A DNA stretch of 64,000 nt. Origin: an uncultured Gammaproteobacteria bacterium (GTDB taxonomy: Bacteria; Patescibacteriota; Microgenomatia; Levybacterales; GWA1-39-11). Within the stretch, counting starts at the first letter, position 1. Each line of letters starts with the position of its first letter. Under the pieces are notes generated by a model. The model saw only the letters and a list, made by a program, of their open reading frames with translations. It ran no database searches and had not been told where the DNA came from. The stretch is from positions 33,208 to 97,207 of the forward strand of contig CAZHDZ010000003.1 of assembly GCA_964531275.1 (NCBI GenBank). The letters are read 5' to 3'. This document shows positions 444 to 55,056 of this stretch, piece by piece. Made by a program: the position numbers and the translations under genes.

Positions 444-563
444 GCCTAGCGTAGCCAAGCTTTGCTTAGCGCAGCCAAGCTCTGCTTATCTTGAAGCTCT
501 GCTTAGCGTAGCCAAGCTCTGCTTAGCGCAGCCAAGCTCTGCTTATCTTGAAGCTCCGCTTAT
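444..563. repeat. Tandem direct repeat, 57-bp period x about 2.1, built from 20-bp subunits GCTTAGCG(T/C)AGCCAAGCTCT plus a 17-bp GCTTATCTTGAAGCTCT subunit
   Basis: Read directly from the sequence. Units lie at 444-463, 464-483, 484-500, 501-520, 521-540, 541-557 and 558-563. The array abuts the lepB stop codon. Confidence 0.85.
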
Positions 564-1120
564 ATTTCGGTGTGTCTGACCACCCTCATGTGATTTAGGG
601 GCCAATACACGAAGAAGGATTTACCAATTACAGCCTGTTTTGTTACAAATCCCCATTCTCTTGAATCAGAGCTAAATTCTCTATTATCTCCCATCGTAAA
701 GTATTGACCTTCTGGAACCACGACTTCATCACCTTCTCCTAAAAAAGAACCACTATTTGTTCTGACTGTAGCAGGAAGAAATGATGATTGATCAACTTTA
801 GTTCCATTAACATAAACTTGTCCTTCTAATATTTTGACCCTATCGCCGGGTAGTCCTATAATTCTTTTAATATAATCTTTTTCTTTGTCTGGGGGAGCAT
901 GAAATACAATAATGTCACCTCTCTTGAGTTCTTCAAGACGAAGGGACACAAGATTTGTTAATACATATTCTCCATTTTGAAACGTAGGATCCATGGAATG
1001 GCCATTTACTTGATAGGGTCTGAAAAGAAAAGCATAGATAACGACAAAAATTGCTCCCGCTATCACGAGTGTCTGAATTAGATCGAAAATTATGTAGTAA
1101 AATTTTCTGAAAAGTTCCAT
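560..1120 (-). CDS. lepB: Signal peptidase I
   Basis: N-terminal TM helix, then GHSMDPT (the catalytic Ser box SM.PT), KRIIGLPGD (the Lys box) and a GDNR..SSDSR box. 186 aa. Confidence 0.9.
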   Translation of the reverse strand: MELFRKFYYIIFDLIQTLVIAGAIFVVIYAFLFRPYQVNGHSMDPTFQNGEYVLTNLVSLRLEELKRGDIIVFHAPPDKEKDYIKRIIGLPGDRVKILEGQVYVNGTKVDQSSFLPATVRTNSGSFLGEGDEVVVPEGQYFTMGDNREFSSDSREWGFVTKQAVIGKSFFVYWPLNHMRVVRHTEI

Positions 1121-1337
1121 TTTTTATTAATATGTTATTCCAATTGTGGGACGCTAAGCATTTTTTGTCAATTTAGTAATATGTTTTCTGTTACAATACT
1201 AAAAATCAATTGCCCTAAAGCCATTTTGTCACTCGCTATAGTAGAGTGCTAAATTGAATCTGGATTTAAAATGGCCCGTCAAATCAATCCAAAGTGAAAT
1301 ATTTTAAGTATATCGAACTAGTATTAAATATATCAAA

Positions 1338-2363
1338 TTGAAACAGAAGCAAACAATCCTTTTCTTAACTAGATTATACCACCCACACATAGGAGGTGTC
1401 GAGAAGCACGTCTACATGGTTGCTCAGTCACTTTTAAATAGGGGCTATAAGGTTGTTGTTGTTACTGAGCAATTTGACTCAAGGCTTCCTCTTACTGAAG
1501 TAGCAGACAATGTTATCATTCATCGCATTCCGATAGCTAAAAAGGAAAAGCTTAAGAAATTTTGGATTTGGAGTTGGGTCATTATGAATAGGGATGTCTT
1601 TTTTAAAGCGCGTGTTATACATGTTCATGACGTTTTTTTCTGGCTTTTGCCCCTTAGGCCCTTCCTCTCTAAAAGGAATATATTTACAACCTTTCATGGT
1701 TATGAAGATTATCCTATAAAACGACGTTGGATCATTATGAGAAAGATAATTGAGAAATTATCTTATGGCACAATTTGCATTGGAGACTTCATGAAAAAAT
1801 GGTATAAGTCTTCTCCTAGCTACGTAAGTTATGGCGCCGTAGAAATGGCAAAAGCTAATGTAGATTACACAGATTCATCAGCGATATTTTTTGGTAGGCT
1901 TGAGCAACAGACAGGCATTCTAGAATACATATCAGCCTATAAAATTATAAAAAAGAAACATCCCAGGTTTAAATTGACGGTGATAGGTGATGGTCCTTTA
2001 AGAGAGATGCTCCCGAAAGGCGTAATTCATATGGGTTTTGAGGCTAATATTGAAAAATTCATAGCACCACACCGATTTATATTTGTTTCTCGTTATCTGT
2101 CAATGTTTGAGGCTATTATTCAAAAAAAAGAAGTTGTAGCAGTATTTTCTGACCCTGTGAAAAAGGATTATTTGGAAATGTCTCCTTTTAAGGATTATGT
2201 ATTCATTACTAAAAGCCCTGCTGAGATTGCTAAATATGTCGATATGAGTCTAAAAGAAGGTCAAAATAGAAAATTAATTGAAGATGCATATGTATGGGCA
2301 AGGCAGAATACGTGGAGAAAATTAGTTAATACCTACCTCAATCTATGGGGAATTGCTAAATAG
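1338..2363 (+). CDS. Glycosyltransferase, GT4-like; probable TTG start
   Basis: The N-terminus ILFLTRLYHPHIGGVEKHVYMVAQSLLNRGYKVVVVT matches the Glyco_transf_4 Rossmann N-domain pattern. The C-terminal half has a degenerate E..(A)..G motif. Confidence 0.5.
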   Translation: MKQKQTILFLTRLYHPHIGGVEKHVYMVAQSLLNRGYKVVVVTEQFDSRLPLTEVADNVIIHRIPIAKKEKLKKFWIWSWVIMNRDVFFKARVIHVHDVFFWLLPLRPFLSKRNIFTTFHGYEDYPIKRRWIIMRKIIEKLSYGTICIGDFMKKWYKSSPSYVSYGAVEMAKANVDYTDSSAIFFGRLEQQTGILEYISAYKIIKKKHPRFKLTVIGDGPLREMLPKGVIHMGFEANIEKFIAPHRFIFVSRYLSMFEAIIQKKEVVAVFSDPVKKDYLEMSPFKDYVFITKSPAEIAKYVDMSLKEGQNRKLIEDAYVWARQNTWRKLVNTYLNLWGIAK

Positions 2364-4078
2364 GCAACTACAAGTATAAGTCCGAGGATGCTGAGAATAT
2401 TTGCAAAGGTAACTATTGGGGTAGCCTCAAAAGAGAGAAGTGCGTCATACGTACCAGGGGAAAGTGAAAAACGAATTTTATTGGACTTTTGAGCATCGAT
2501 GAAGCTAAAAGGATAGTTTTTTCCATTTATGTATAGATTCCATCCCGGAAAATAATACGTATTCTCAACGAATTCAGATTTTTGTACCACATTGAGCCTA
2601 TATTTATGCCTTGTTGGCGTTTTTGAGAGCACACTAATGGTTGATTGACCGTTTACTACTTCAAGGGAGCTTTCAGGTGGAATTTTTTCCCATATATTGT
2701 TTATGTCTCTACTTATTGGAGCTGCAGGTTGTAGGCCTTCAGCCTCAGCTGTAGCAAGAGGTGCGTGATGCATGAGGTAGGAATCATTAATATCGGGAAG
2801 CATAGCTCTTGTTCCCCAATTGAGAATTGTAGAAAGCATGGCAATTGTGGCTATTCCATAAATAATTTTAGGTTTTCTTACCTTGTTGATCGATATTGCT
2901 CCAATTATGGCTAAAACAAACGCAACTGGTAGCATCATACGATAGGAAAATTGGAAATTAGTTAAAAAGGGAATTGTTTTCCAAACAAATTCAGAAAATG
3001 GAAAAAGGAGAAATAGCAGAAAAGTAAATATAGTAAGAAGAATTATGGATGTTTTTTTAAGTTTCTTTTCTATTTTGCCTCGAAATAGTGAAATTAGCAA
3101 AAATACCAGTAGCGCCAGTTGTACAAATCCCATAGGAAAAGAGAGTTGGCCGATTGGACCCTGATAAAGAAAGCCCATTCTCCAAGGCGAGATAAAATAA
3201 AGAGTGGGATTCTCAAAAGATATATGTTTTGAGAATTCGACTTGTAAGGTATGCGCAGTTCCCTCAACTACGGGTAGCCAGTAAAAACTAGTAGCAAGAA
3301 ATGCACAAAAGAGAGATATGTATATAGGTATTACCTTCCAAGCCTCTTTTTTCCAAAAAGTACCTGATAAGCCTTTCAGCCTAATTAATATGAAAAGAGG
3401 GAATAGTATTATGAATGGAGTTGCTATAAGCGTAATCGCTTGATGCGAAAGCACTAGGCAGGAGTAAGTAAAGAATAGAAGGGCGACATATCGTTTTATG
3501 GGTCTACTAGATATTCTTAACATCGAATAAAATATCAAAGGAAGGAAAGCAAAAGCAAACAGCTCTCCAAGCGCAACACGAAAATGCAAATCAACTAAGT
3601 GATATGGAGCAAACAAATATAAGATAGCACCCAACGCGCTGCTATTTTTATTTAAGAATTGTTTTAGGAGAAGATACATTCCAACTCCTGAAAGTACAAA
3701 AACTAAGGCTATAGAAAATTTTTCAGAGGCTATAAATGATATTCCAATAAATTTAGGAATTGCAATTGCATAGTATGGAAGTGGATATGTAAAGAGAAAC
3801 AACGGGTATCCATATGTTGCATTTAGTATCGAAGCCCAGTGAACAGGGAAAATTCCGAACGAAAGAGAATTCCAAAGATCATATGCCTTAGCTATATTTA
3901 TTGCAAAGTCACCACTTTGGTGTACGCCTCTTTTAAGTAGTGAAAGTAAGGGTAGTAAAGATGCAAGTAATACGAAATAAAAACTAAACTTTTCTCTTCT
4001 TCTAATAAAAAAAATCGTTATTAAGAAAATAAGAAACGCAATAAGGCTTGTTGTAACCAGTTTTTGAGGGTCTAACAT
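2333..4078 (-). CDS. Polytopic membrane protein, YfhO/GT-C-like putative lipid-linked-sugar glycosyltransferase
   Basis: About 12 predicted TM helices. The C-terminal extracytoplasmic domain carries YYFPGWNLYINGK followed by a final TM helix, the Y.PGW...(V/I)(D/N)G signature typical of YfhO-type GT-C proteins. Confidence 0.5.
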   Translation of the reverse strand: MLDPQKLVTTSLIAFLIFLITIFFIRRREKFSFYFVLLASLLPLLSLLKRGVHQSGDFAINIAKAYDLWNSLSFGIFPVHWASILNATYGYPLFLFTYPLPYYAIAIPKFIGISFIASEKFSIALVFVLSGVGMYLLLKQFLNKNSSALGAILYLFAPYHLVDLHFRVALGELFAFAFLPLIFYSMLRISSRPIKRYVALLFFTYSCLVLSHQAITLIATPFIILFPLFILIRLKGLSGTFWKKEAWKVIPIYISLFCAFLATSFYWLPVVEGTAHTLQVEFSKHISFENPTLYFISPWRMGFLYQGPIGQLSFPMGFVQLALLVFLLISLFRGKIEKKLKKTSIILLTIFTFLLFLLFPFSEFVWKTIPFLTNFQFSYRMMLPVAFVLAIIGAISINKVRKPKIIYGIATIAMLSTILNWGTRAMLPDINDSYLMHHAPLATAEAEGLQPAAPISRDINNIWEKIPPESSLEVVNGQSTISVLSKTPTRHKYRLNVVQKSEFVENTYYFPGWNLYINGKNYPFSFIDAQKSNKIRFSLSPGTYDALLSFEATPIVTFANILSILGLILVVAYLAIPHRLR

Positions 4079-4105
4079 TGGTGGTATTATATACTAACAA
4101 AATTT
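4079..4105. promoter_or_regulatory. 27-bp divergent intergenic region with overlapping face-to-face -10 boxes (minus strand TATAAT 4091-4086, plus strand TATACT 4090-4095), implying leaderless or near-leaderless divergent transcripts
   Basis: Only 27 bp separate two divergent start codons (ATG 4078 on the minus strand, ATG 4106 on the plus strand). TATAAT ends 7 nt before the minus-strand ATG and TATACT ends 10 nt before the plus-strand ATG. Neither gene has a Shine-Dalgarno sequence. Confidence 0.35.
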
Positions 4106-5032
4106 ATGAAGGCCGCACTTATTACAACAGTACTTAATGAAGAAGATTCTATTGGAAAATTTTTGGATTCCATTGTTTCCCAAACGCTAATTCCATCCGA
4201 AATAATTATCGTTGATGCCGGCTCGAAGGATAACACGATTTCTATAATTAAAAAATACTCCAAAAAACTTCCTCTAAAACTGTTTATACATAAAGGTAAC
4301 CGTTCTACCGGAAGAAATTTTGCGATTAAAAAGACAACGAGTGAATATATTGCTGTAACTGATGTTGGATGTACTCTTGATAAATTTTGGTTTGAGAGAA
4401 TTACTACTCCCCTTGCTAATAATTGTGATGTTGTCGCAGGTTTTTATAAGCCAATAACGCTCAATGTTTTTGAAAAATCATTAGCCACTTATACCTGTGT
4501 GCCAATTGATAAAGTAACACAAGATTTTCTTCCCTCATCTCGTTCTGTCTCTTTTTCAAAAAAAGCATGGACTAAAGTGGGTGGTTATCCGGAGCATCTT
4601 GATACTTGTGAGGATTTGGTTTTCGCGTCGGCGTTAAAAGCAGCAGGATTGAGATTTTCAGTAGCCAAGAACGCTCTTGTGTATTGGCAGCAGCGGAAAA
4701 ACATCATTGAGGCTTCTTGGCAATTTTATAGTTATGCGCTTGGTGATGGAATGGCAGGATACTATAGAATCCAAACCCCGTTTCTTTTTGGTAGATATAT
4801 TTTATTGGCCATAATATTATTGGCTTTTGCACATGTAAAAGATGTGATGATATTTTGGATAATTTGTCTATTAGCCGTTGGATATCTATCTTGGTCAATT
4901 AAAAAAAATTATAGGTATGTTAGGCATCCATACGCTTTTGTGTATCTGCCAATACTGCAAGTTACGTCAGATATTTTTGTTATTGCAGGTACTACTAATG
5001 GGACTCTCAAGAGGATTTTGAAAGCGATTTAA
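4106..5032 (+). CDS. GT2 glycosyltransferase with two C-terminal TM helices, GtrB/DPM1-like polyprenyl-phosphate sugar transferase
   Basis: LITTVLNEEDSIGKFLDSIVSQT...IIVDAGSKDNT matches the GT2 N-terminal motifs (DxD region). A C-terminal hydrophobic hairpin is present as in GtrB. Confidence 0.7.
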   Translation: MKAALITTVLNEEDSIGKFLDSIVSQTLIPSEIIIVDAGSKDNTISIIKKYSKKLPLKLFIHKGNRSTGRNFAIKKTTSEYIAVTDVGCTLDKFWFERITTPLANNCDVVAGFYKPITLNVFEKSLATYTCVPIDKVTQDFLPSSRSVSFSKKAWTKVGGYPEHLDTCEDLVFASALKAAGLRFSVAKNALVYWQQRKNIIEASWQFYSYALGDGMAGYYRIQTPFLFGRYILLAIILLAFAHVKDVMIFWIICLLAVGYLSWSIKKNYRYVRHPYAFVYLPILQVTSDIFVIAGTTNGTLKRILKAI

Positions 5033-5855
5033 TATTTTTCATAGTGCAGATAAATGCCCATCCGAAAAGTATATTAAGCGGAAAATATTTGGAGAAAGGA
5101 TAAAGGGCACTTATAAGATTATATAAAGCATGCTTAGTACTTTTCTTATTCTTTATGTATCCCACTTTTGTTTTTATGGTTCCAGCAAAACCATACTCAT
5201 TAAAAAGGCTTTTTAAATAGAAAAATGTTGGTTCATTAATATGTTGTATATGTTCTGCATCTGTACGCGGATCTTTAGGGAGTGCATCATAGATTTTGTT
5301 AAAAAAAATTCGATCAAAAGCACGAATAATATTATTTATGGGTCTTATATACATCGGGTATGTATAGTTATGTAGAATTTTATTGGTTCCGGTATGAGCA
5401 AAGAATATCCCATTTGGCTTTAGGACTCTTTTTACTTCTTGCATCATTTTTTTCATTTCCTGCTTGTTGAGATGCTCTATAACATCTAGTGCTATAACCT
5501 TGTCGAAGAAATTGTCATCAAAATCAAGCTTCGTAGCATTCATCTCATAAAATTCTATTTTCTTTTTAATAGTATCGGGGAAAGTTTTCTTTGCTCTATT
5601 TGCAAGGGTAATGCCATCTTTTGAATAATCAATTCCAATAGCCATTTTTGCTCTTTTGCCTAAATTAATTGTTATATCGCCTCGGCCACATCCAATATCA
5701 AGAATAGTGTCGTTTTTTCGTACATCAATTATGGATAGTAGCTCCTTAACCTCTCCAGCAAGATTTTTTCCATGCGTTTGGTTAAATTCAGATGAGCCTA
5801 GGCAAACTTTCGTGTAGTAGTCTTTGTCATATACAGTTGAGGGAATGGTTTTCAT
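5007..5855 (-). CDS. Class I SAM-dependent methyltransferase
   Basis: ILDIGCGRGDIT (motif I GxGxG), ALDVIEHL (motif II) and VLKPNGIFF (motif III). Confidence 0.75.
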   Translation of the reverse strand: MKTIPSTVYDKDYYTKVCLGSSEFNQTHGKNLAGEVKELLSIIDVRKNDTILDIGCGRGDITINLGKRAKMAIGIDYSKDGITLANRAKKTFPDTIKKKIEFYEMNATKLDFDDNFFDKVIALDVIEHLNKQEMKKMMQEVKRVLKPNGIFFAHTGTNKILHNYTYPMYIRPINNIIRAFDRIFFNKIYDALPKDPRTDAEHIQHINEPTFFYLKSLFNEYGFAGTIKTKVGYIKNKKSTKHALYNLISALYPFSKYFPLNILFGWAFICTMKNIKSLSKSS

Positions 5856-7072: not shown

Positions 7073-7169
7073 ATTTCGATTATCTTGTATGCTAGTTTTA
7101 ATTGCAAATAAGGGCTAATTCGATCTGAATTTCATTTGAAATTAGTATATAATTACCCAATCAAAAGGC

Positions 7170-8198
7170 ATGAAAAAGACTGTATTAATCACTGGGGGAG
7201 CGGGTTTTATAGGTATTAATACGGCAGCATATTACATTAGGAAAAAATACAATGTCATACTTCTCGATAACCTTTCACGAAAAGGAGTGGAAAAGAATAT
7301 TAAGTGGCTGACCAAAACTCATAAAAATAATTTCAAACTGGTAAAGTACGATTTAAAAGATACTTCAAGAAAATTAGAAAACATAGTATCCAAAGCTGAC
7401 ATAATTTTTCATTTAGCTGGGCAAGTTGCAGTGACAACATCAGTTCTTGATCCCATGGCGGACTTTAGAGCAAATGCCGTTGGGACCATGAATATGCTTG
7501 AAGCAGCGCGAAAGAGTAAGAAAAATCCCATATTCATTTTTAGCTCGACAAATAAAGTCTATGGCGATTTAGAAAATATAAAAATTCAGGAAGAAAAGAC
7601 TAGATATTCTTTTAAGAATTTACCTAAGGGAATTAATGAGATGCAGGGATTAGATTTTCATTCTCCATACGGTTGTAGTAAGGGGGCGTCGGATCAGTAT
7701 GTTAGAGATTACAGCCGGATTTATGGAATGAGGACAGTAGTTTTTAGACAATCATGTATTTATGGTCCACATCAATACGGATTTGAAGATCAGGGATGGG
7801 TTGCCTGGTTCATGATTGCAGTTCATTTGAATAAAGAAATTACCATTTATGGCAATGGTAAGCAGGTTAGAGATTTATTGTATGTAGGCGATCTCATTGA
7901 AGCATATGATTTGGCAATACAGAATATAAAGACAACATCGGGGAGAGTTTATAACTTAGGAGGAGGATTAAAAAATTCAATATCGGTGTGGCTCGAATTC
8001 GGGCCAATTCTCCAAAAATTATTCAGGAAAGACATCACTATCAAGAAGGACAATCCAAGACCGGGTGACCAGTTCATATTTATTGCTGATACTAGTCGTG
8101 CAAAGAAAGATTTCGGATGGGTACCAAAAACCAATCTTCCTGCCGGCCTAAAAAAGCTGTTCACATGGATACAAGAAAATGAAAAAGAATTTAGTTAA
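7170..8198 (+). CDS. NAD-dependent sugar epimerase/dehydratase (extended SDR), CDP-paratose/tyvelose 2-epimerase-like
   Basis: TGGAGFIG Rossmann motif; YGCSKGASDQY (the catalytic YxxxK); GWVAWF, as in tyvelose-epimerase-like SDRs. Confidence 0.75.
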   Translation: MKKTVLITGGAGFIGINTAAYYIRKKYNVILLDNLSRKGVEKNIKWLTKTHKNNFKLVKYDLKDTSRKLENIVSKADIIFHLAGQVAVTTSVLDPMADFRANAVGTMNMLEAARKSKKNPIFIFSSTNKVYGDLENIKIQEEKTRYSFKNLPKGINEMQGLDFHSPYGCSKGASDQYVRDYSRIYGMRTVVFRQSCIYGPHQYGFEDQGWVAWFMIAVHLNKEITIYGNGKQVRDLLYVGDLIEAYDLAIQNIKTTSGRVYNLGGGLKNSISVWLEFGPILQKLFRKDITIKKDNPRPGDQFIFIADTSRAKKDFGWVPKTNLPAGLKKLFTWIQENEKEFS

Positions 8199-17052: not shown

Positions 17053-18003
17053 CTATAGCAACTTCTTATACCATTCGCCTGTTTTAGAAAGGCCATCGTC
17101 TAAAGACATTTGTTGCCTATATCCCAATTTTTTTATTTTGGTAATGTCAGGGCACCTTCTTGGTGTACTGCCTTTTTTTAGTTCGCCTGTTACTATTTCT
17201 ATCTCCTTGTTAAGTATCTTTGCAATTTTCTTTGTAAGATTAAGGGAACTAATTTCGTCATCATTTCCTATGTTAAATGTACTTAAATTTTTTGACTTTG
17301 TAAAAACTTCAAAGAAAGCATGCGCAAAGTCATCTATGTACATATAAGATCGTGTTTCTGAGCCCTTTCCTTGTATTCTAAATTTGGTTTTTTTGTTGCC
17401 AATCTTTAACATCCGAAGAATTAATTCGGGAATTGCATGTTCAGTGCCCATGTCCGGTCCATATATATTGTGAGGGCGGAATATGACGGTCTTTTTAAGA
17501 TATTTTGATGCCACATGTATAGCAAGAAGTTCTGAAAGTATCTTTCCGCCTCCATACGAAAAACGTGGATTATATGGATCAGGAACCACCAGTGGAATTT
17601 CTTCTGGCGTGGGTACAATAGAGGGATTTTGATAGACCTCGGAACTTGATGCAAGGAATAATTCTTCCACATTATCAAGCTTGCAGGCTTCAATTACCGA
17701 GAGCATACCATTAACCCCAATATCAAGTACTAGATCGGGGTTTGAATAAAAAAACTTTGTTCCATTCACGTATGCAAGATGAATTATTGATGTGCAGTCT
17801 TTTGCTGCACTAACCACTTTTTTCGTATTACGAATATCACACTCTATAAAATCAAAATTGCCCTCTACATTTTTGAGCTTTGATAATTTTCCACGTTGGA
17901 GATTATCCAAAACCTTAATGTCGTAACCTTGCTGAATAAGACTCTCAACGATAGATGCGCCAATAAATCCAGCACCACCAGTTATCAATATTTTCTTTTT
18001 CAT
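17053..18003 (-). CDS. Extended-SDR NAD-dependent enzyme, UDP-glucuronate decarboxylase (UXS/ArnA C-domain)-like. The ORF-track N-terminal extension to 18099 is a translation of the repeat array and is rejected.
   Basis: ILITGGAGFIGAS motif; SSSEVY; PRFSYGGGK (YxxxK); IFRPHNIYGP. These align in order with ArnA decarboxylase-domain motifs (FPSTSEVYG, RWIYSVSK, LFRPFNWMGP) recalled from memory. Confidence 0.65.
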   Translation of the reverse strand: MKKKILITGGAGFIGASIVESLIQQGYDIKVLDNLQRGKLSKLKNVEGNFDFIECDIRNTKKVVSAAKDCTSIIHLAYVNGTKFFYSNPDLVLDIGVNGMLSVIEACKLDNVEELFLASSSEVYQNPSIVPTPEEIPLVVPDPYNPRFSYGGGKILSELLAIHVASKYLKKTVIFRPHNIYGPDMGTEHAIPELILRMLKIGNKKTKFRIQGKGSETRSYMYIDDFAHAFFEVFTKSKNLSTFNIGNDDEISSLNLTKKIAKILNKEIEIVTGELKKGSTPRRCPDITKIKKLGYRQQMSLDDGLSKTGEWYKKLL

Positions 18004-18049
18004 TTGACCATTATAGACACGGGAATATTTTTCTGCAAATAAGTCGTGT

Positions 18050-18273
18050 GGAAGTTTTAGCGCAGCCAAAACCGACGCAGGAAGTTTTAGCGCAGCCAAG
18101 GTTCTGCGAAGCAGGTTCTTATCATAGCCAAAAGCAGCCCAGGAAGTTTTAGCGCAGCCAAAACCGACGCAGGAAGTTTTAGCGCAGCCAAGGTTCTGCG
18201 AAGCAGGTTCTTATCATAGCCAAAAGCAGCCCAGGAAGTTTTAGCGCAGCCAAAACCGACGCAGGAAGTTTTA
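18050..18273. repeat. Tandem direct repeat, 92-bp period x about 2.4; each period contains two copies of the 20-mer GGAAGTTTTAGCGCAGCCAA
   Basis: Read directly. Periods start at 18050, 18142 and 18234. The array lies in the divergent intergenic region between the SDR gene (minus strand) and the dehydrogenase gene (plus strand). Confidence 0.85.
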
Positions 18274-43691: not shown

Positions 43692-44621
43692 TTAGGCAAC
43701 CTGTTGTAATTGTTGAAATGAGAATCGATCTTGATCGGGGACAGCAATAAAAGTCGTATCGCGTCCTGCATTTTTCGCTTCTGCAACTGCAGCACTTGCT
43801 CGGCTTAATAATTGCAAACCGTTTTCCCCTGGTTGTAATTTTGTTGCCCCAAAGCTTAAGGTAACGACTTTGGGAATTCCTTCCTCTGATATCTCATTGT
43901 CTTTTAAAGTGTCTTTTGGGTGCATTTCTTGTAATGCCTTTGCACTCATTTCTTTATAAAGGCGTGAATATCTTCCGGTAATTGATGCTATTTTTTCTTC
44001 ATCTGTTGCTTCCGGTTTTTCTTCTATTCGAACATTGTTAAGATTTATTAACTGTACAAACTCTTCCCCACCAAAACGTGAGATTAATTCGTCATTTCTT
44101 GCCAAATTGCCCATAAGTCTTAAAAGATTGTCACCACCTGTGTGATTGTAGATTGTATTTATGTATTTAAATCTGTCTAGGTCAATAAATACAGCCCATA
44201 AATTACTGTTAGGATCCTGATGTGATGTTTCTACTTGGGAATCTATAGTCTCTTCAAGCCATCTCCGATTTTTCAAACCAGTAAGCTGATCCGTATAGCC
44301 TTGAATTTCTATACCGGCTCTTCGTAATGCATCCTGTTCTGCGAATTTTGATTTACTGACAAAATCTATTCCATTTTCAAGCATTAGATCTTGAACATCC
44401 GCTAGATGTCTCCTGAATATCCCATCATAGTAGTCATCTAGTTCGGCTGGAACTGCTTCTAGTTTATCTAATTGGTCATTTTCTTCACGATCAAAAATAT
44501 TAAGTTTTCCTTTCGTAGGGCCGAACCGATCCCACCATCTGTCAACTATAATTGCTGCCTCAGGGGTTCCTGCTTCGGGTATATGGGGGGGTGTGATTTT
44601 TGCTCCTAAACCTTCAGTCAT
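43692..44621 (-). CDS. GGDEF-domain diguanylate cyclase with an N-terminal domain of unknown function of about 120 aa; no TM helices
   Basis: DQLTGLKNRRWLEE; FIDLDRFKYINTIYNHTGGDNLL; RFGGEEF (a GG[DE]EF active-site motif); SFGATKL...AVAEAKNAGRDT. Confidence 0.8.
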   Translation of the reverse strand: MTEGLGAKITPPHIPEAGTPEAAIIVDRWWDRFGPTKGKLNIFDREENDQLDKLEAVPAELDDYYDGIFRRHLADVQDLMLENGIDFVSKSKFAEQDALRRAGIEIQGYTDQLTGLKNRRWLEETIDSQVETSHQDPNSNLWAVFIDLDRFKYINTIYNHTGGDNLLRLMGNLARNDELISRFGGEEFVQLINLNNVRIEEKPEATDEEKIASITGRYSRLYKEMSAKALQEMHPKDTLKDNEISEEGIPKVVTLSFGATKLQPGENGLQLLSRASAAVAEAKNAGRDTTFIAVPDQDRFSFQQLQQVA

Positions 44622-47420: not shown

Positions 47421-47423
47421 GCT

Positions 47424-47714: not shown

Positions 47715-47721
47715 GCCTATA

Positions 47722-47871: not shown

Positions 47872-48282
47872 TTAGCGTTTTGCATCTGACCGTTTAGCTC
47901 CCGTGTAGACATTCTTTTTATAAACCAATTGTGATCCTCCGACCTTTCTGAATTTCTTTGCCATGTAGTCTTTTTCTGTTTTGTCTTTTCTTTTAAGCAC
48001 AAGTTCAAAACATTTGGGATAGCTTCTTAACTGTCTTGCGACCCAAGCAATAGTTGAAACGCCTACCTTGGAGAGATCAGCTATATCTTTAAAGGTACTT
48101 TCATTAATTAAGCTTTCTGCGATTTGAATTCTTCTGCCGATTCTAATTTTTTCATCTTCGGTAAGCAATCCATTAATTAATTCATTTACCTCAGTGCCAT
48201 CCCTAGCAGCAAGAAAAGCGTCACGAAGACGATTCATTGCGCAATATGTTTCGCTTTTTGTGAGAAAACTATATCTATACAT
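47872..48282 (-). CDS. TrpR-fold YerC/YecD-like DNA-binding protein with a basic C-terminal extension
   Basis: NELINGLLTEDEKIRIGRRIQIAESLINESTFKDIADLSKVGVSTIAWVARQLR aligns with the B. subtilis YerC pattern (NELLSLSQRFEVAKML...ISEKTGASTATISRVNRSL) recalled from memory. Confidence 0.6.
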   Translation of the reverse strand: MYRYSFLTKSETYCAMNRLRDAFLAARDGTEVNELINGLLTEDEKIRIGRRIQIAESLINESTFKDIADLSKVGVSTIAWVARQLRSYPKCFELVLKRKDKTEKDYMAKKFRKVGGSQLVYKKNVYTGAKRSDAKR

Positions 48283-48369
48283 CTTTTGCTCCAGTAATAC
48301 AGATTACCGAAGTGAAATTAACAAATGATTAAAAAAAAGTATGTGGATAGGGTTTAGGGGCCTGGTGGG

Positions 48370-49137
48370 TTATTTGATACCGAGTCTAGAGACAAGAACC
48401 TCTTTAGCTTTTTTGGCAAGGACATCATTGAAAGCAAGCTTTATTTTCTTATCGTATTTATTTTCAATCGCTATTTCCAGAAGCTCTATAGCTAGCTCAG
48501 GGTTAGATGGTAGGATCGGTCCATGCATGTAGGTGCCAATAGAGTTTTTATAGTGTATCCCCTCGGTTTTGTCTTCTCCATTGTTGCCATATCCATGAAT
48601 AACCTTGGCAAATGCCATTGTATTATCTTTTAAATATGTTCTGCCGCCATGGTTTTCAAATCCAACATACGTTTTATTCTTGCGGAGGACAACAATATTG
48701 CCAATAAGTCTTTCCTTCTTTGGATCACTTTCCGTTGACATATCAAAAACGCCTAATCCTGGTATTTCTTTGCCATAAGCATCCTTATAATAATTACCTA
48801 AAAATTGATAAGCTCCACAAATGTAGAGTCCGGGGATTCCATCTTCAACCATTTTTGTAAGAGTAGTGCCCTTTTTTTCAATTAAATCTCGATTTACAAT
48901 TTCCTGCTGGAGGTCCTGTGCACCTCCCATAAACAACATATCACAGGTTTTAAGAACCGTATTGTCAGTATCTTGATCAATCCTCAATATCTCTACGTTT
49001 ATATTATGATCTTCGGCTATTCGTCGCAAAACAATAATATTGCCACGGTCGCCGTACGTAGACATAAGTTCTGGATATAACCATCCAATGGTAATTTTAG
49101 GATTTAAAATATTTATCTTCGTATGTTTTGTGTTCAT
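48370..49137 (-). CDS. gatD: Lipid II isoglutaminyl synthase glutaminase subunit GatD (CobB/CobQ-like class I glutamine amidotransferase)
   Basis: GIPGLYICGAYQFLG (catalytic Cys), GFENHGGRTY and GYGNNGEDKTEGIHYKNSIGTYMHGPILPSN match S. aureus GatD motif by motif. Confidence 0.9.
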   Translation of the reverse strand: MNTKHTKINILNPKITIGWLYPELMSTYGDRGNIIVLRRIAEDHNINVEILRIDQDTDNTVLKTCDMLFMGGAQDLQQEIVNRDLIEKKGTTLTKMVEDGIPGLYICGAYQFLGNYYKDAYGKEIPGLGVFDMSTESDPKKERLIGNIVVLRKNKTYVGFENHGGRTYLKDNTMAFAKVIHGYGNNGEDKTEGIHYKNSIGTYMHGPILPSNPELAIELLEIAIENKYDKKIKLAFNDVLAKKAKEVLVSRLGIK

Positions 49138-49175
49138 ATTTTAGTTTTCGATCACTAACCGCCATTTACTGATCG

Positions 49176-50459
49176 CTAAAGTATCGATTTTCCCGAAATT
49201 AATTTTCTTATTTCAAGCATTGCTGAATATGTCGGAAGAATTGTTAACCTTTGTCCTTCAGGGGTATTATTGAAAGCGTTCTGGTATGATGCGTTAAGAT
49301 TGTCACTCACTTCATGGGTGACACCTGCAAAAAGAAGTCTATTGGCCATATCATAAGCTCTATCTCCCGATACGAATACTTTTATTTTTGTCTTTTTTAA
49401 TACTTCAAAGTCTACATCCCAAATCCATGAAATATCTCTTCCATCGGGTATCCTGTCATTAAGAAGAATTAAAAGATTCGAGCTTTTATTTTCAATAGCT
49501 ACTTTTATACTTTCATTAAATCCTGTTGGATTTTTTGATAACAAATACATTATTCGCCTATTATTTATAGAAACTTCCTCCTGCCTCCCGAAGGCAGGCC
49601 GAAGTGTTATGAGAGAATTGAGAATATCCTTTTCTTTATATTCAAATTCGTGTCTTAGAACGGTAGCTGCAGCGTTAAGGTTATACTGATTATACGTTCC
49701 TAATAATTGAGAAGGGATTTCCAAGTTTTCTGATTTAGGATTTGAGTAAGAGCAGTTTGGGCATATGTAATTTCCGAGATGAGAGTAGGAAATCGTAATG
49801 TAGTCAAGCTGGAAATTGCATTTAGGACAAGTTGTGGAATCAACAGCATGACTGAGCGAGCGATTATTCTTATATTTTGGCGGAACGGTAAAGTAGATGT
49901 GTTTGGGAGCACGCGAGGCTACATACGCTATGAGAGGGTCATCTGCATTTGCTACAACGGTTGTTGACGTGCTCAATTTTTCGAATGAATGTATCCATTT
50001 TTCTGCTGTTGTATTTACTTCCCCGTAACGGTCAAGTTGATCACGGAAAAGGTTGAGAAGAATAATTGCGTTTGGATTTGGAATTTCTTTAAGAATTACA
50101 GGAAGAGAGTTCTCATCTGTTTCAAAAATTATAACTTTTTTACTGAGTTTTCCTGAAAGATTTACGTCGGCAACAAGAGTAGAGGCTAATCCATTTATAA
50201 GATTTGCACCAGAATTATTTGTAAGTACTGAATGCCCAATTTGTTCAAGTGCGTGAGAAAGAGCCTTTGTTGTAGTGGTTTTGCCATTGGTTCCGGCAAC
50301 AAGGATAATTTTCAGATCCGGATTCTTTGATATAACTTTTCTAATGAGCTTTGGATTTATTTTTAAGGCAATGTGGCCGGGCCAGGTTGATCCAGATCCT
50401 AGATTTATTATTTTGCCTATTTTAAGAACAGTTTTACCTAACAGTAGACCATGACGCAT
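49176..50459 (-). CDS. murT: Lipid II isoglutaminyl synthase Mur-ligase-like subunit MurT
   Basis: VAGTNGKTTTTKAL, FRDQLDRYGEV, ADDP, the Cys4 ribbon CPKCNFQLDY...CPNCSY, and the C-terminal DUF1727 motif DGRDISWIWDVDFE. Confidence 0.9.
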   Translation of the reverse strand: MRHGLLLGKTVLKIGKIINLGSGSTWPGHIALKINPKLIRKVISKNPDLKIILVAGTNGKTTTTKALSHALEQIGHSVLTNNSGANLINGLASTLVADVNLSGKLSKKVIIFETDENSLPVILKEIPNPNAIILLNLFRDQLDRYGEVNTTAEKWIHSFEKLSTSTTVVANADDPLIAYVASRAPKHIYFTVPPKYKNNRSLSHAVDSTTCPKCNFQLDYITISYSHLGNYICPNCSYSNPKSENLEIPSQLLGTYNQYNLNAAATVLRHEFEYKEKDILNSLITLRPAFGRQEEVSINNRRIMYLLSKNPTGFNESIKVAIENKSSNLLILLNDRIPDGRDISWIWDVDFEVLKKTKIKVFVSGDRAYDMANRLLFAGVTHEVSDNLNASYQNAFNNTPEGQRLTILPTYSAMLEIRKLISGKSIL

Positions 50460-50477
50460 AACTTTTAGTATACCAAA

Positions 50478-51374
50478 CTACATGCTTCGAAGGATCTTGA
50501 TTCGCTCCTCGGCGGGAGGATGTGTGGAGAATAATTTTAACAAAAAGGAAGACCCTTTTTTGGTATCTGTTTTGAATGGGTTTTCTATATATAAGTGTGC
50601 GGTTGCATTACTTGCTGATTTCAATTGATGCTTATCTAGAGCAATTTTCTCAAGAGCACGAGCCAATGCTTCGGGGTGTCTAGTGAGTAATGCCCCATCC
50701 GCGTCAGCTAAGAATTCACGTCTTCTTGATACAGCAAACTGTATCAGCATGGCAGCGATAGGTGCAAGTATAGCTGCGACAATTCCAAGTATCAAAAATA
50801 GGCCATTATTGCTGCTTCTATTATCATCTCTCCCTCCCCACAAAAGGTTTCTCATGAAAAAATCGGCCAGTATTGCAATTGATCCAGCAAGTATGCTTAC
50901 GACTCCCATAAGCCGTGTATCGTAATTTTTGACATGGGAAAGCTCGTGTCCGATCACACCTTCTAGCTCAGCTTCTGAAAGTATATCCAAAAGACCGGTA
51001 GTTGCAGCAACAACCGCATGCTTTGGGTCGCGACCTGTAGCAAAAGCATTCGGAGCAGGGTCGTTAATAACATAGACTTTTGGCTTTGGTAATCCCGAGG
51101 CAATACTTAAATTTTCTACTGAGTTATAGAGAACTCTGTGTTGGTCTCTTTTCGCTTCAACAGCTCCACTCATTGACAGTACGATCTTGTCTGAATAGTA
51201 ATAAGAAACAAATGACATTACACCTGAAATGATGAGCATAATTCCTACGAAGGACATTCCGTATCCAAGAGCACGTCCTAATAGAATTGATACACCCAGG
51301 AATAAGAGAATAAAAACACCCATCATAAGCAAGGTTTTTAGTTTGTTTGATGAAATTTGGCTGTAAATAGTCAT
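50478..51374 (-). CDS. htpX: Membrane zinc metalloprotease HtpX (M48)
   Basis: HELSHVKNYD (HExxH), N-terminal TM helices and a downstream EFLADADGA motif. Confidence 0.85.
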   Translation of the reverse strand: MTIYSQISSNKLKTLLMMGVFILLFLGVSILLGRALGYGMSFVGIMLIISGVMSFVSYYYSDKIVLSMSGAVEAKRDQHRVLYNSVENLSIASGLPKPKVYVINDPAPNAFATGRDPKHAVVAATTGLLDILSEAELEGVIGHELSHVKNYDTRLMGVVSILAGSIAILADFFMRNLLWGGRDDNRSSNNGLFLILGIVAAILAPIAAMLIQFAVSRRREFLADADGALLTRHPEALARALEKIALDKHQLKSASNATAHLYIENPFKTDTKKGSSFLLKLFSTHPPAEERIKILRSM

Positions 51375-51446
51375 AGTTAAAAATTTATCTAAACAAAAAA
51401 TGTCTTCAATTTTCTCGCTGAGATTTTGTTATAAATTTTCACGATA

Positions 51447-52013
51447 TCAGAAATTTATTTTCGGAGTTTTCTTTTCTTCTTCATCTGCTTCGAAGAATTC
51501 ATAGGCTTTAAAGCCAAATTGTGAAGCAATAAGCGCAGCAGGAAATGTTTGGATCTTGGTGTTGTACGCAAGAACATTTGAATTATAGAATTGTCGTGAA
51601 TAACTTACCTTATCTTCTGTATCAGACAGTTCATCCTGAAGGTCTTTGAAGTTGTCGCTAGCTTTTAGATCGGGATAACTCTCAGCAACTGCAAACAATG
51701 ATTTAAGAGCTCCAGTAAGCATATTGTCGGCCTCTGCTTTTTCGTGTAAAGAGTCGGCTTTCATAAGCATACTTCGAGCTTTGGTCACATTTTCAAATAC
51801 TTCTTTTTCATGCTTGGCATAGCCCTTAACAGTCTCGAGAAGATTTGGGATTAGGTCGGCTCGTCTTTTAAGTTGAACATCAATTCCGCTGAGTGCTTCT
51901 TTTATTCTTTCACGAAGAGTAACTAGTGAATTATACGTAAGCCAAATATAGGCAATGAATGCTAGTACGACAAAAATTATTATTCCGATCCACATGTTCA
52001 TAGTAAGAATCAA
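51447..52013 (-). CDS. lemA: LemA family protein
   Basis: N-terminal TM helix followed by the LemA signature [47 protein letters not shown]. Confidence 0.85.
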
Positions 52014-52042
52014 TTATGACATATTTCAGGTTTGATTTCAAA

Positions 52043-53812
52043 TTAGGAGTTAATCCACTCTTCAAGCTCTTTGTAATCCCATGTGTTGATGATATCTTCT
52101 TTTTCTGCCCATCCCCGTCTTGCTACGGCTACTCCATAAGGCATATTATCCATGTGAGACACTGCATGGCTATCGGTGTCTATAACAAATTTAACTCCAC
52201 AGGTTTTTGCTTCTCGTACAAGTGTGTCTGCAAGATCTAATCGTGTTGGCCAGGAATTAATTTCTAGGGCTTTGTTGTGCTCTTTCGCAAATGCAAATAG
52301 TTCTTTCCAATCAACTTCATAAGGATCTCTTTGGTTGATAAGTCGGCCGGAGGGGTGGGCAAAAATTTTTGCCTTTGGATGCGAGAGTCCACTTAAAATT
52401 CTCTTCATCATCTTGTCTCTTGGAGTTCTGAAGGAAGAGTGGATGCTCACTATTGCCATGTCCAGCAAATCTAAACATCTATCGCTTAGTGCTAATTTGC
52501 CATTAACAAGGATATCAACTTCAAGTAAATTAATTATTCGAATACTTTTAGTACTCTTTTTAAGTTGTTCTATTTTTTTGTTCCTTTTCAAAAGTATAGA
52601 GTAAATTTCTTCCTCAGTATGATTTCCAACGCTAGGATTATGCTCTGAAAAACCGAAATATTTGTAGCCTAGTTTCTCAGCTTTCTTTAGCATGTCTTCC
52701 ATCGTATCTTGACCTAGATCGTGACTTGGTTCTATTGGATAATTTGAGTGAATATGAAAGTCACCTTTTATATCTTCTAGAGTAACGAGTTTCGGTAGTT
52801 TGTTGTTGAGTGCGGCTTCAATTTCTCCCTGGTTTTCACGTATTTCTGGGGGGATCCAAGAAAGACCCAGGAATTTATAGAACTCCTTTTCATCTTCAAA
52901 GGTTTTGAGTGTTCCGTCTTTTAGCTTGATGCCTTTTTCCGAAAGCGAATACCCTTTTTTGAGGGCAAACTCTCGTAGTGCGACATTATGCTCTTTACTA
53001 CCAGAAAAATGTTGTAGAAGTGACCCCAACATATTAGGCTTGAGTACCATAAGATCAACCTGCTTATTTCCAGACAGTATTATTGAAGAAGTGATTTCTC
53101 CTCTTTCAATTATTCTGTCTTTATACGGATAGTTATTGAAATGATCTAATACTGCGTCTGGGTTGTTAGAGCTTACTGCTATGTCTACGTCTCCTATGGT
53201 TGACTTCATTCGCCTGAGGCTACCAAGAGTAAAAGCTTGTAGGACATTTTTATCCTTTTTTAGATAGGCAAGCATTGTGACGGATATTTCTGATGCCACT
53301 GCAAGAACCATTCTTGAGGATTTAGTTTTGCCGAGTCTATACTCATCTATAGCACGCTTAATATCACTCTGAGATTTCTCTCCAAACCCTTCAAGTGCGG
53401 ATATTTTATTCTCTATTGCCAGCTTATACACGTCTTCAATAGCACTTCCGGGATCCGTTAACTTAAAATTCTCAACAAGCTTAAAAGCTTTTTTGGGTCC
53501 AAAGGTGGGAATATCTAGCAGGGGAAATATTGCCGGTGAAACGTTTTTAAGGACAGTATCGAAGTGCTCAACTTCTCCAGTATTAAAAAGCTCAAGAATA
53601 TGATTTCTAATACTTGGTCCTACCCCTGAAAGTTTGTCCAGGGAATTATCTGTAAGGAGGTCCTTTACTTCTGTGACGCTTGACTCAATCGAATCTGCAG
53701 CTTTTTGATAGGCAAGGATTTGAAATTTATATTTTCCTTCGTTTTGGATAGTGTATGCTGCAGCAACTTGTCTTAAAAGCCGAGAAATTTGTTCATTTGT
53801 GAACGAGTGCAT
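52043..53812 (-). CDS. polX: DNA polymerase/3'-5' exonuclease PolX (Pol beta-like N-terminal domain plus PHP C-terminal domain). Start taken at MHSF...; the track start 54007 would run into tRNA-Asp.
   Basis: An HhH/Pol-beta fingers and palm region (GFGEKSQSDIKRAI; DVDIAVSS) and a C-terminal PHP domain (HIHSNYPIEPSHD...DTDSHAV). Confidence 0.8.
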   Translation of the reverse strand: MHSFTNEQISRLLRQVAAAYTIQNEGKYKFQILAYQKAADSIESSVTEVKDLLTDNSLDKLSGVGPSIRNHILELFNTGEVEHFDTVLKNVSPAIFPLLDIPTFGPKKAFKLVENFKLTDPGSAIEDVYKLAIENKISALEGFGEKSQSDIKRAIDEYRLGKTKSSRMVLAVASEISVTMLAYLKKDKNVLQAFTLGSLRRMKSTIGDVDIAVSSNNPDAVLDHFNNYPYKDRIIERGEITSSIILSGNKQVDLMVLKPNMLGSLLQHFSGSKEHNVALREFALKKGYSLSEKGIKLKDGTLKTFEDEKEFYKFLGLSWIPPEIRENQGEIEAALNNKLPKLVTLEDIKGDFHIHSNYPIEPSHDLGQDTMEDMLKKAEKLGYKYFGFSEHNPSVGNHTEEEIYSILLKRNKKIEQLKKSTKSIRIINLLEVDILVNGKLALSDRCLDLLDMAIVSIHSSFRTPRDKMMKRILSGLSHPKAKIFAHPSGRLINQRDPYEVDWKELFAFAKEHNKALEINSWPTRLDLADTLVREAKTCGVKFVIDTDSHAVSHMDNMPYGVAVARRGWAEKEDIINTWDYKELEEWINS

Positions 53813-54013
53813 ATACCAAATAGTACCATAAATCGACCGTTTTGGAAGTCCAAATTGCTCTGTTTGAGGCCATTGACGTATAGGAGCTGAGTTGATAGAA
53901 TAATCAGACCAAAACTGAAGAAAGGTTGGGGGTGATCCATTTACAGCGCTTCGCGTTGGGATGGTAGTCGAAGTCCAATAAAGACTTCTCCTCCACCCCA
54001 AAAACACAGTTTT

Positions 54014-54087
54014 TGGGGTGGTAGCTCAGTTGATTAGAGCGCTTCCCTGTCACGGAAGAGGTCGCGGGTTTGAGTCCCGTTCACCCC
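54014..54087 (+). tRNA. tRNA-Asp (anticodon GTC)
   Basis: Cloverleaf folded by hand: acceptor GGGGTGG/TCACCCC, D-arm GCTC/GAGC, anticodon stem CTTCC/GGAAG with loop CTGTCAC, T-arm GCGGG/CCCGT with loop TTTGAGT, discriminator G. Confidence 0.9.
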
Positions 54088-54187
54088 GCAAATACAATAA
54101 CTTGTAAAGCTCGTCTAATAAAACGATCTACAGGAAAAATAACAATCTGCTCAGTCTGCTCACATCTTCTGCCTGGAAAGGAGTTTT

Positions 54188-54880
54188 ATGCCAAAAAAAT
54201 CTACAAAACAAGAAGAAAATGCTTTTGACATTCAAAAGCTGATGCAAAATTCGGATTCATACAAAAGTCTGATATACGGAATCGTAACCGTCGTTGTGCT
54301 TTTTATCGTAATTGCGCTTGGAGTAAGAACCTTGTCTCAAAATAGAGCAGAGGTTGATAACCAAGCAGCGATGACAGATGAAGCAAAAGACGTTCTTACA
54401 AGTTCTTACACAGTGCAAGAAGGGGAAACTCTTTGGAGCATTGCTGAAAAATCATACGGTGATGGATACGCTTGGGTTGAAATAGCTAAGGCAAACAAAA
54501 TATCCGAAGCTGACTCAATCGAGAAGGGCCAAAAACTTATCATTCCAAAAATTACACCAACAAAAGTAGAAGTTGCAATGGTATCGCCAACTACAGTTCC
54601 AACTGAAGTTGTTAAGCCAACTGCACCATCTACCCCTACGCCTGTTGTTACAAAAGCACCACAAGCTATGGATAATGGTGCACAAAAGGGTATGGAGGAC
54701 GCTAATGTAATGCAAAAAATTACAGCCAATACATACACTGTTGTTGCTGGTGACAATCTTTGGACTATTGCTGTTAGAGCATATGGAGACGGATACAAAT
54801 GGGTAGATATTGCCAAGAATAACAATCTTGATAATCCTAACCTTATTTTCTCCGGAAATGTCCTTAAGCTTTCTCGTTAA
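54188..54880 (+). CDS. Membrane-anchored protein with two LysM domains (peptidoglycan binding)
   Basis: N-terminal TM helix. Two LysM repeats: YTVQEGETLWSIAEKSYGDGYAWVEIAKANKI and YTVVAGDNLWTIAVRAYGDGYKWVDIAKNNNL. An AGGAG ribosome-binding site lies 7 nt upstream. Confidence 0.85.
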   Translation: MPKKSTKQEENAFDIQKLMQNSDSYKSLIYGIVTVVVLFIVIALGVRTLSQNRAEVDNQAAMTDEAKDVLTSSYTVQEGETLWSIAEKSYGDGYAWVEIAKANKISEADSIEKGQKLIIPKITPTKVEVAMVSPTTVPTEVVKPTAPSTPTPVVTKAPQAMDNGAQKGMEDANVMQKITANTYTVVAGDNLWTIAVRAYGDGYKWVDIAKNNNLDNPNLIFSGNVLKLSR

Positions 54881-55056
54881 CCTTGGCTGCGCTAAGCTAA
54901 TCTTGGCTTCGCTAAGCTAATCTTGGCTTCGCTAAGCTAATCTTGGCTGCGCTAAGCTAATCTTGGCTGCGTTAAGCTAATCTTGGCTGCGCTAAGAAAA
55001 TCTTGGCTTCGCTAAGAAAATCTTGGCTTCGCTAAGAAAATCTTGGCTTCGCTAAG
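54881..55056. repeat. Tandem direct repeat, nine copies of a 20-bp unit TCTTGGCT(G/T)CGCTAAG(CT/AA)AA; its reverse complement contains TTAGCGCAGCCAAGA
   Basis: Read directly. It begins one nt after the LysM gene stop codon. Confidence 0.9.

Follow-up and report, generated by a model that had tools for sequence, protein, structure and literature searches.

Why should three unrelated intergenic gaps in one bacterial contig carry tandem repeats built around the same short core? The question arose from a 64,000-nucleotide stretch of DNA from an uncultured bacterium (GenBank assembly GCA_964531275.1, 156-kb contig CAZHDZ010000003.1, positions 33,208 to 97,207; hereafter the window), in which a first-pass annotation, made without database searches, had marked three such arrays and offered three readings of them: iteron-like binding sites for a dimeric protein, a fast-evolving minisatellite family, or remnants of miniature inverted-repeat transposable elements (MITEs). 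We conclude that the arrays probably represent a lineage-specific family of interspersed, hairpin-cored minisatellites in a clade of Patescibacteria (candidate phyla radiation, CPR), a counterpart of the repetitive extragenic palindromes and bacterial interspersed mosaic elements (REP/BIME) and of repeats of the mycobacterial interspersed repetitive unit (MIRU) type. We favor a minisatellite or REP-like nature over conserved operators because of the family's dispersal, its location at gene ends, the homogeneity of its arrays, their copy-number polymorphism, and their gain, decay and loss between close species. Interspersed repeat families have barely been described for Patescibacteria/CPR; our literature text searches returned no paper that treats the 13-mer core as a repeat, nor any that deals with intergenic tandem repeats of Patescibacteria.

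A shared hairpin core in three arrays

Three non-coding arrays are present, at 443-563, 18050-18273 and 54878-55056 (all at or within 3 nt of where they had first been placed), and they do share a 13-mer core, spread over 18 units. The motif TTAGCGNAGCCAA is common to these 18 units, all inside the arrays, with no copy elsewhere in the window. At one mismatch or fewer, TTAGCGCAGCCAA has 17 matches where shuffles predict 0.06, and 17 of 17 fall within arrays; the concern that the 13-mer might be equally common in coding DNA is thereby answered. Relaxing the threshold to two mismatches adds one array copy (at 446) and one coding match (at 17801), with 1.28 expected by chance. A unit profile run against the window with nhmmer likewise recovered 18 units, all in the three arrays, the next match having E=0.87. 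Shuffles and profile scan together rule out a chance or compositional k-mer. We also rejected a coding repeat, since the arrays have stops in all frames, the unit lengths are not multiples of 3, and the overlap of one open reading frame (ORF; 17053..18099) with array 2 is an artefact of a TTG start. The real start of this gene, an epimerase, is ATG 18003, placed there because the Pfam domain begins at residue 5 and the ortholog is 316 aa long.

Array 1 (443..563, plus strand) lies between the convergent genes lepB (minus strand) and parB (plus strand) and comprises about six 20-bp subunits grouped into a 57-bp higher-order unit; Tandem Repeats Finder reports it at 443-562, with period 57, 2.1 copies and a 95% match. 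Four of the approximately six subunits carry the core as (C/T)TAGCG(T/C)AGCCAA on the plus strand. Array 2 (18050..18273, plus strand) is built of 30-bp subunits within a 92-bp higher-order unit, detected over this same interval as 2.4 copies that are 100% identical, with core copies at 18057, 18087, 18149, 18179 and 18241. It also contains a second hairpin module, the 19-mer GGTTCTGCGAAGCAGGTTC, which includes GCGAAGC and occurs on the plus strand at 18100..18118 and again at 18192..18210. Array 3 (54878..55056) has the simplest structure, a 20-bp period repeated 8.9 times with a 94% match; its core, TTAGCG(C/A)AGCCAA, is on the minus strand, and its plus strand, the sense of the LysM-gene mRNA, reads TCTTGGCTKCGCTAAG(CTAA/AAAA).

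The core is an imperfect palindrome, (C)TTAGC-GNA-GCCAA(G), with five inner pairs of which one is A.C; extended to GCTTAGC-GNA-GCCAAGC, it offers a 7-bp stem with a single A.C position, which becomes G.U on the other strand. At its center, the heptamer GCGNAGC, N being C, A or T, is found in 17 of the 18 units in the window, and the remaining unit has ACGCAGC. Three bases on each side of this heptamer (TTA...CAA) are conserved as well, and over 18 copies the core varies only at the central N, plus two singleton changes. DNA of sequence GCGNAGC forms a mini-hairpin with any N through a sheared G.A pair, with a Tm of 70-76 C (PMC13037366). The core matches this motif and is predicted to adopt the same structure, and the mini-hairpin rule, which leaves N free, would explain why one core position varies. 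As RNA, the strand complementary to the core folds better by 10-29 kcal/mol in all three arrays because G.U pairs take the place of A.C mismatches, and array 3 in the LysM-mRNA sense reaches folding z scores of -5.1 to -8.0.

Family members and array turnover

Are the arrays peculiar to this window? A scan of genome collections for two exact cores 5-30 bp apart returned 19 loci, of which nine are non-coding arrays in low-GC metagenome-assembled genomes (MAGs). We set the other ten aside (L001, L002, L005, L007-L012 and L015) as unrelated repeats that merely contain the 13-mer, most of them with a 15-bp period, CCTTAGCGGAGCCAA, that encodes pentapeptide-type NLSGA repeats, so that possession of the 13-mer does not by itself identify a family member. 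Three more arrays, with periods of 18, 32 and 42 bp, came from a scan of metagenomes. A scan of viral contigs gave 0 matches, and we rejected a phage origin on that basis. Similarity between arrays extends beyond the core: the exact 20-bp unit of array 1, GCTCTGCTTAGCGTAGCCAA, recurs in L006 and L018 and, with one substitution (GCTTTGC...), in L013, and at four contig ends of one MAG, CAZEEU (L003, L004, L014 and L016), the core alternates with an exact copy of the array 2 19-mer. At L024, three cores of 13-14 bp are separated by differing 18-19-bp spacers. The family is thus dispersed over unrelated housekeeping loci in several species. The canonical core itself is missing from approximately 45 kb of syntenic sister-species DNA and from 20 kb of each of two more distant relatives. 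Beside lepB in one more distant relative, which has no core-type array, we noted an unrelated perfect 29-bp tandem repeat upstream of the gene (TAACATGCAAATTAGTTCTCAATTTACAC, 2.4 copies; L034, 9900-9970).

Across the family, units range from 18 to 43 bp. Outer stems vary yet stay complementary, with GC..GC pairing in array 1, GTT..AAC in array 2 and ATAGG..CCTAT in L022. Composite units contain additional hairpins, capped by C(GNA)G or C(GNNA)G loops that all lie on the same strand. These comprise CTGC-GAA-GCAG in array 2 and the sister species, AAAAC..C-GNA-G..GTTTT in array 2, its ortholog and a second array in L004, TTCC-GCA-GGAA in L019, and TTCC-GCAA-GGAA in L004. The second L004 array (3809-3906), different from the first, occupies the gap upstream of murJ in the sister species; its 44-bp unit, present 2.2 times, joins the hairpins AACAC-GACGAAGGA-GTGTT and ATTCC-GCAA-GGAAT, and the GACGAAGGA loop also occurs in the array 2 ortholog. 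Such an array hints that the repeats belong to a wider superfamily whose hairpins end in GNA or GNNA loops.

The sister species, CAZEEU (GCA_964511305.1), is syntenic with the window: its nucleotide-sugar dehydrogenase is 90% identical, its DNA about 72-80% identical, and one of its contigs (CAZEEU010000001.1, L035) matches window positions 8000-29600 gene for gene. Homologs of LepB and of the dehydrogenase at 64-65% identity carry the names Patescibacteria, Levybacteria and Gottesmanbacteria; look-ups returned no database record of the window species' own dehydrogenase. On this sequence evidence the window organism is a Patescibacterium. The titles "uncultured Gammaproteobacteria" of the related MAGs are ruled out as taxonomy by the CAZEEU synteny and the Patescibacteria-named homologs, and that of CAZEEU is almost certainly a taxonomy-mapping error. 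Three further entries with these repeats (CAZEGF, CAZDED and CAYPEN) bear the Gammaproteobacteria label too.

Comparison with relatives shows how quickly the arrays turn over. Array 1 is missing in relatives with 90%, 85%, 83% and 76% LepB identity, whose lepB-parB spacer measures 0-48 bp. Because it is absent from that spacer, we regard a 183-bp segment of the window (387..569; boundaries, from alignment to relatives, accurate to within a few bases) as a lineage-specific insertion consisting of array 1 and a 56-bp non-repeat tail. In the alignment the insertion swaps out the last lepB codon and provides the stop: LepB ends in HTEI* in the window and in HTEIK* in the closest relative, and the stop codon (TAA, 560..562, minus strand) comes from the first, degenerate unit of the array (ATAAGC). 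The tail includes an inverted repeat, AAATCTGCA at 381-389 and CGCAGATTT at 426-434, the left arm of which runs past the segment boundary.

The other two arrays have sister-species orthologs. That of array 3, which also starts in the LysM stop codon, has a 21-bp unit repeated 3.9 times in which the core has decayed to TTATCGTAGTCAA; it folds no better than shuffles (z -0.3), and its unit is closer to the array 1 unit of the window than to that of array 3. The array 2 ortholog has a 33-bp unit with AAAACCGACGNAGGAGGTTTTAG in common with the window unit and a degenerate core. Its copy number is 3 in two assemblies (L035 and L038, from NCBI and JGI) versus 2 in two others (L036 and L037, both from ENA) with identical flanks, and three further contigs break inside it. 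Arrays in this lineage therefore differ in copy number from one assembly to another and show concerted evolution, units within an array being homogenised, and between sister species they are gained, degenerate and lose their fold. Copy-number change, the absence of array 1 from relatives, the divergence of orthologous units and homogenisation all bear out the earlier suggestion of a fast-evolving minisatellite family.

Could the arrays instead be assembly errors, or a compositional k-mer without common origin? Repeats of this kind do break assemblies at contig ends, and more than half of the loci in the genome scan were coding repeats that merely contain the 13-mer. Against this stand the excess of matches over shuffles, the 19-mer and 20-mer shared beyond the core, and the orthologous arrays in four sister-species assemblies. 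Array 3 is, moreover, invariant in three assemblies, being base-identical over nine units in ERZ15185891 (L020) and ERZ28614207 (L031), samples possibly not independent of the window's source; array 1 units are present in the Logan assembly of ERR8482638 (L021), for which the same reservation holds. An assembly artefact is unlikely as the source of the arrays, and the combined explanation of artefact or chance, extremely improbable in our estimation, is effectively refuted.

Two loci carry local duplications beside an array. At L013 (6061-6243), an array of 2.7 units and about 75 bp of unique sequence are bracketed by a perfect 29-bp direct repeat (TTTTTTTGAAAAGCTTTTGAGGTAT...), which may stem from the insertion event or represent a promoter duplication. 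In the sister species, L016 (1359-1510) carries, beside another core array, two partial copies of the lepA 3' end found at L004 (73-154), one of 44 nt at 100% identity and one of 82 nt at 83%; either the array mediated a duplication of its flanking DNA or the assembly is chimeric at the repeat. The direct repeats around the L013 array and the lepA 3'-end copies are possible signs of copying.

Gene ends and candidate functions

If the arrays are mobile or expanding repeats, where do they settle? The window holds housekeeping genes (a glycan-biosynthesis cluster with an Arn-like set, ATP synthase, DnaE, GatCAB, MurT/GatD, PolX and BipA), and the gene contexts first described for the arrays, namely a divergent Arn-like pair, lepB/parB and LysM/tRNA-Gly, are correct. 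The claim that array 1 abuts both parB and lepB applies to lepB, in whose stop codon the array starts, but not to parB, whose stop (333) is about 110 nt away. The LysM stop codon (54878-54880) makes up the first three bases of array 3; beyond the array come the promoter region of tRNA-Gly and then tRNA-Gly itself. Array 2 fills the gap between the divergent epimerase (ATG 18003, minus strand) and nucleotide-sugar dehydrogenase (ATG 18289 or 18322, plus strand) genes, and the -35 of a promoter-like site for the epimerase sits 11 bp from it. Unrelated to the repeats, this reduced genome also encodes, near DnaE and GatCAB, a GGDEF-domain protein (43692-44621, minus strand) and a PolX-type polymerase with a pol beta thumb and a PHP domain (52043-54007, minus strand).

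Stop-proximal arrays recur elsewhere, after lepA (L004, at 10 nt), an integrase-family gene (L018, 0-2 nt), an unannotated ORF (L013, 12 nt) and a thiol-disulfide protein gene (L006). At L024 the entire interval between two convergent genes, one for an ABC transporter and one response-regulator-like, is taken up by the array, and the L017 array, like array 2, occupies a divergent gap. Family sites are non-coding gaps, mostly directly 3' of stops or between convergent genes, with a divergent promoter gap occupied twice. The first unit contains or adjoins the stop codons of lepB, of the LysM gene (in both species) and of the L018 integrase gene; overlap of units with a start codon was seen nowhere except possibly at L017. 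There (7400-7546), the 43-bp unit holds the start and first five codons of a downstream signal-peptide gene (ATGAAAAAAATACTTA...) fused to the core, and the array therefore repeats the 5' end of that gene three times. Each strand of a unit supplies a stop triplet (TAA on one, TAG on the other), and at a 20-bp period three units suffice to close all frames; gene 3' ends may be where arrays are tolerated because an array closes all reading frames.

Downstream of array 3, an 8-bp perfect hairpin, CGTTAAGC-TTC-GCTTAACG (55205-55223, plus strand), stands 13 nt 5' of tRNA-Gly(CCC) (55236-55307), and its central GC-TTC-GC is in common with the repeat unit. At this site the sister species has another hairpin, CTTTAGG-TTACG-CCTAAAG (L025, about 12950-12931, minus strand), so that the structure is kept and the sequence changed; a -10-like box, TTGTTGTATACT(A), lies upstream and is conserved in both species. 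The hairpin may be a tRNA leader, processing or terminator element.

The position of the arrays directly after stops raises the possibility that they are selected RNA elements. Stem-loops CUUGGC-UNC-GCUAAG in 3' untranslated regions (UTRs), or in a leader in the case of array 2, would then serve to end transcription, to keep convergent genes insulated or to shield mRNA 3' ends, replacing U-tract terminators. Consistent with this, the better-folding strand is the mRNA sense of both lepB and the LysM gene, most co-directional arrays follow stops directly and with the same polarity, the window shows no enrichment of consensus intrinsic terminators (14 versus 12.2 expected; 14 versus 15.2), and there is no other terminator-like hairpin between the LysM stop and the tRNA-Gly promoter. 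However, all close relatives do without array 1, their short spacer having its own palindrome followed by T's, and the orthologous LysM array of the sister species lacks folding potential. Array 2 and L017 lie upstream of divergent genes; in L006, L019, L023 and L024 the other strand is the sense of the nearest gene; there is no U-tract; and the 5-bp inner stem has no compensatory changes. We consider such a selected RNA function unlikely.

A second alternative takes the uniform core as its starting point. In a system like that of REPs and their associated tyrosine transposases (RAYTs), the mismatched hairpin would be the single-strand site of an HUH (Y1) transposase or similar enzyme, encoded elsewhere, that copies units and keeps the core uniform. 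Imperfect palindromes with an invariant mismatch are found in REPs as well, the exact core is kept over arrays and species while flanks differ, all GNA loops of composite units are on one strand, and insertions bring extra sequence and sometimes a duplicated flank, as with the L013 direct repeats and the lepA copies at L016. Yet Pfam and NCBIfam scans found no Y1 or other transposase in the 64 kb of the window or beside any array examined, the units are head-to-tail direct repeats rather than the inverted doublets of REPINs (PMC3337134, PMC3116915), and there is no conserved GTAG 5' motif. Taken together, we judge this explanation quite unlikely.

Could the arrays serve as operators? According to the iteron-like proposal, the 13-mer would bind a protein, either dimeric or cooperative on direct repeats, for regulation, nucleoid organisation or partition. 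The core does contain a dyad, TTAGC-N3-GCCAA, its copies cluster with regular spacing, both array 2 and L017 are just upstream of divergent promoters (in the former case close to the epimerase -35), and the window encodes parB and a YerC/TrpR-like gene (47872-48282). Against these points, the core is degenerate at both orthologous arrays of the sister species although the promoters and genes around them have been retained, array 1 was inserted recently, gene 3' ends hold most of the arrays, the two half-sites are unequal throughout (TTAGC versus TTGGC), and spacing ranges from 18 to 62 bp. parB adjoins array 1, but relatives keep parB without the array, and the window contains no parS-like sequence at three or fewer mismatches. 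The A.C/G.U asymmetry of the dyad and the restriction of GNA loops to one strand argue for a property of single strands, DNA or RNA, rather than a double-stranded dimer site. Iteron-like dimeric sites, a prediction from sequence, are accordingly disfavored, and we hold the operator explanation in general to be improbable.

Taking these single-strand features further, the 13-mer hairpin and its C(GNA)G sister modules might form the recognition element of a dedicated Patescibacteria protein (an HUH/RAYT-like copier, a primase- or single-strand-initiation (ssi)-type factor, or an RNA-binding protein), with the arrays as a CPR-specific repeat-and-enzyme system. If true, this would explain the exact core in arrays with unrelated spacers in several species; it is speculative, and we think it unlikely.

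The reading we prefer, a hairpin-cored minisatellite family, would work as follows. Arrays would grow and shrink by slipped-strand mispairing or unequal recombination, favored by the very stable GCGNAGC mini-hairpin that may form whenever the core strand is single-stranded. New loci would be seeded by some copying step in which an array and its tail insert, sometimes with a duplicated flank. An array landing in a gene end would truncate the gene cleanly and donate a stop codon; transcribed as 3' UTR, its G.U-compatible strand could fold into a run of stem-loops that might impede 3'-exonucleases or polymerase; such an effect would be incidental, as with REPs, and not something conserved as the function of each array.

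Several observations weigh against this interpretation. The exact 13-mer is kept across differing spacers, across periods of 18, 20, 30, 32, 42 and 43 bp, and in several species, a degree of conservation that neutral minisatellites should not show unless they are re-seeded from a master copy or the core is selected; some of it reflects ascertainment, since only exact cores were accepted in the collection scans. For the seeding of new loci the interpretation offers no more than a putative copying step. Arrays persist at two orthologous positions over roughly 20-28% DNA divergence, and those positions could need an array. The relevant strand is also in tension, the GNA rule pointing to the core strand as single-stranded DNA and G.U pairing to its complement as RNA. 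In co-directional contexts about 6 of 7 arrays have an mRNA corresponding to the strand complementary to the core, a bias that is not significant and only suggestive. The one 57-bp unit of array 1 in the Logan assembly, versus two in the window, may reflect k-mer collapse, and 64 kb of this genome was available.

Relation to known repeat systems

Which described repeats do the arrays resemble? Several classes could be rejected. The first-pass annotation was right that the arrays have no unique spacers and are not CRISPR: units abut directly except at L024, the window has no cas gene, and no CRISPR direct repeat matched significantly. Its suggestion of MITE remnants finds no support, since there are no terminal inverted repeats, units run head to tail and the window genes include no transposase; the 18 array flanks share no common module or terminal repeat, only orthologous flanks and two local duplications having matched, and the 183-bp lepB insert lacks a clear terminal inverted repeat or target-site duplication. 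As intrinsic terminators the units lack a T-run after their hairpins, and only CTGCGAAGCAG with TTCTTATCAT in array 2 weakly fits the terminator scan. No Rfam family matched the arrays at gathering or E<=10 thresholds. An explanation by replication strand was rejected too: the core lies on the plus strand in arrays 1 and 2 and on the minus strand in array 3, with GC skew mostly positive in the window, which gives no consistent relation.

BOX elements of Streptococcus pneumoniae, likewise modular and intergenic, carry one module in a variable number of tandem copies, and the element as a whole has a predicted RNA fold. They have defined boxA and boxC ends around the 45-bp boxB module, whereas our comparison of flanks revealed no such terminal modules here.

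The closest parallels are REP/BIME and MIRU. The REP/BIME of Enterobacteria and Pseudomonas are likewise imperfect palindromes of small size (about 15-35 nt), dispersed in extragenic DNA and often located directly after stops or between convergent genes; they too form mosaic clusters with other short motifs, fold in mRNA 3' ends and fall into lineage-specific sequence classes (PMC3337134, PMC3116915, PMC3686654), and REP-containing mRNAs are structured substrates of exonucleases (PMC12320835). Unlike REPs and REPINs, the units described here are head-to-tail direct repeats with periods of 18-43 bp, all in one orientation per array and without an inverted doublet. They also lack the GTAG/CTAC 5' tetranucleotide, GTAG arising only where N=T and other units having GCAG or GAAG, and no RAYT was found among the window and array-flanking genes scanned. 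The host, too, differs, being a Patescibacterium with a small genome, and the known copy number is low, three arrays and 18 units in 64 kb, with at least four contig ends of the sister MAG lying in arrays.

With the MIRUs of Mycobacterium tuberculosis, 46-101 bp repeats at 41 loci of which 12 are variable, the arrays have in common that one tandem-repeat family occupies many intergenic loci with strain-polymorphic copy number, and that unit ends overlap the upstream gene's stop codon (PMC3914561, PMC3635867). Both hallmarks of such a variable number tandem repeat (VNTR) family are found here, one family at dispersed intergenic loci and copy-number polymorphism between assemblies. In contrast to MIRUs, the units are shorter and have a palindromic hairpin core, without sequence similarity and without evidence of small coupled ORFs. 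Nothing here overturns current understanding. In practical terms, such arrays break MAG assemblies at contig ends, remodel gene 3' ends through donated stop codons, and provide VNTR markers for strain typing of uncultivated cells.

At the level of structure, the nearest relative is the mini-hairpin DNA d(GCGNAGC), or d(GCGNNAGC): GCGNAGC centers every intact core and also the second module, CTGCGAAGCAG, with N as the only free base (PMC13037366), and related modules are CCGCAGG in L019 and CCGCAAGG in L004. Whereas such mini-hairpins are known from single-strand origins of phages and plasmids, from hairpin promoters and as sequencing artefacts, but not as a building block of chromosomal minisatellites, the arrays provide natural chromosomal runs of this unusually stable motif and a test bed for distinguishing hairpin-driven expansion from reading by a protein.

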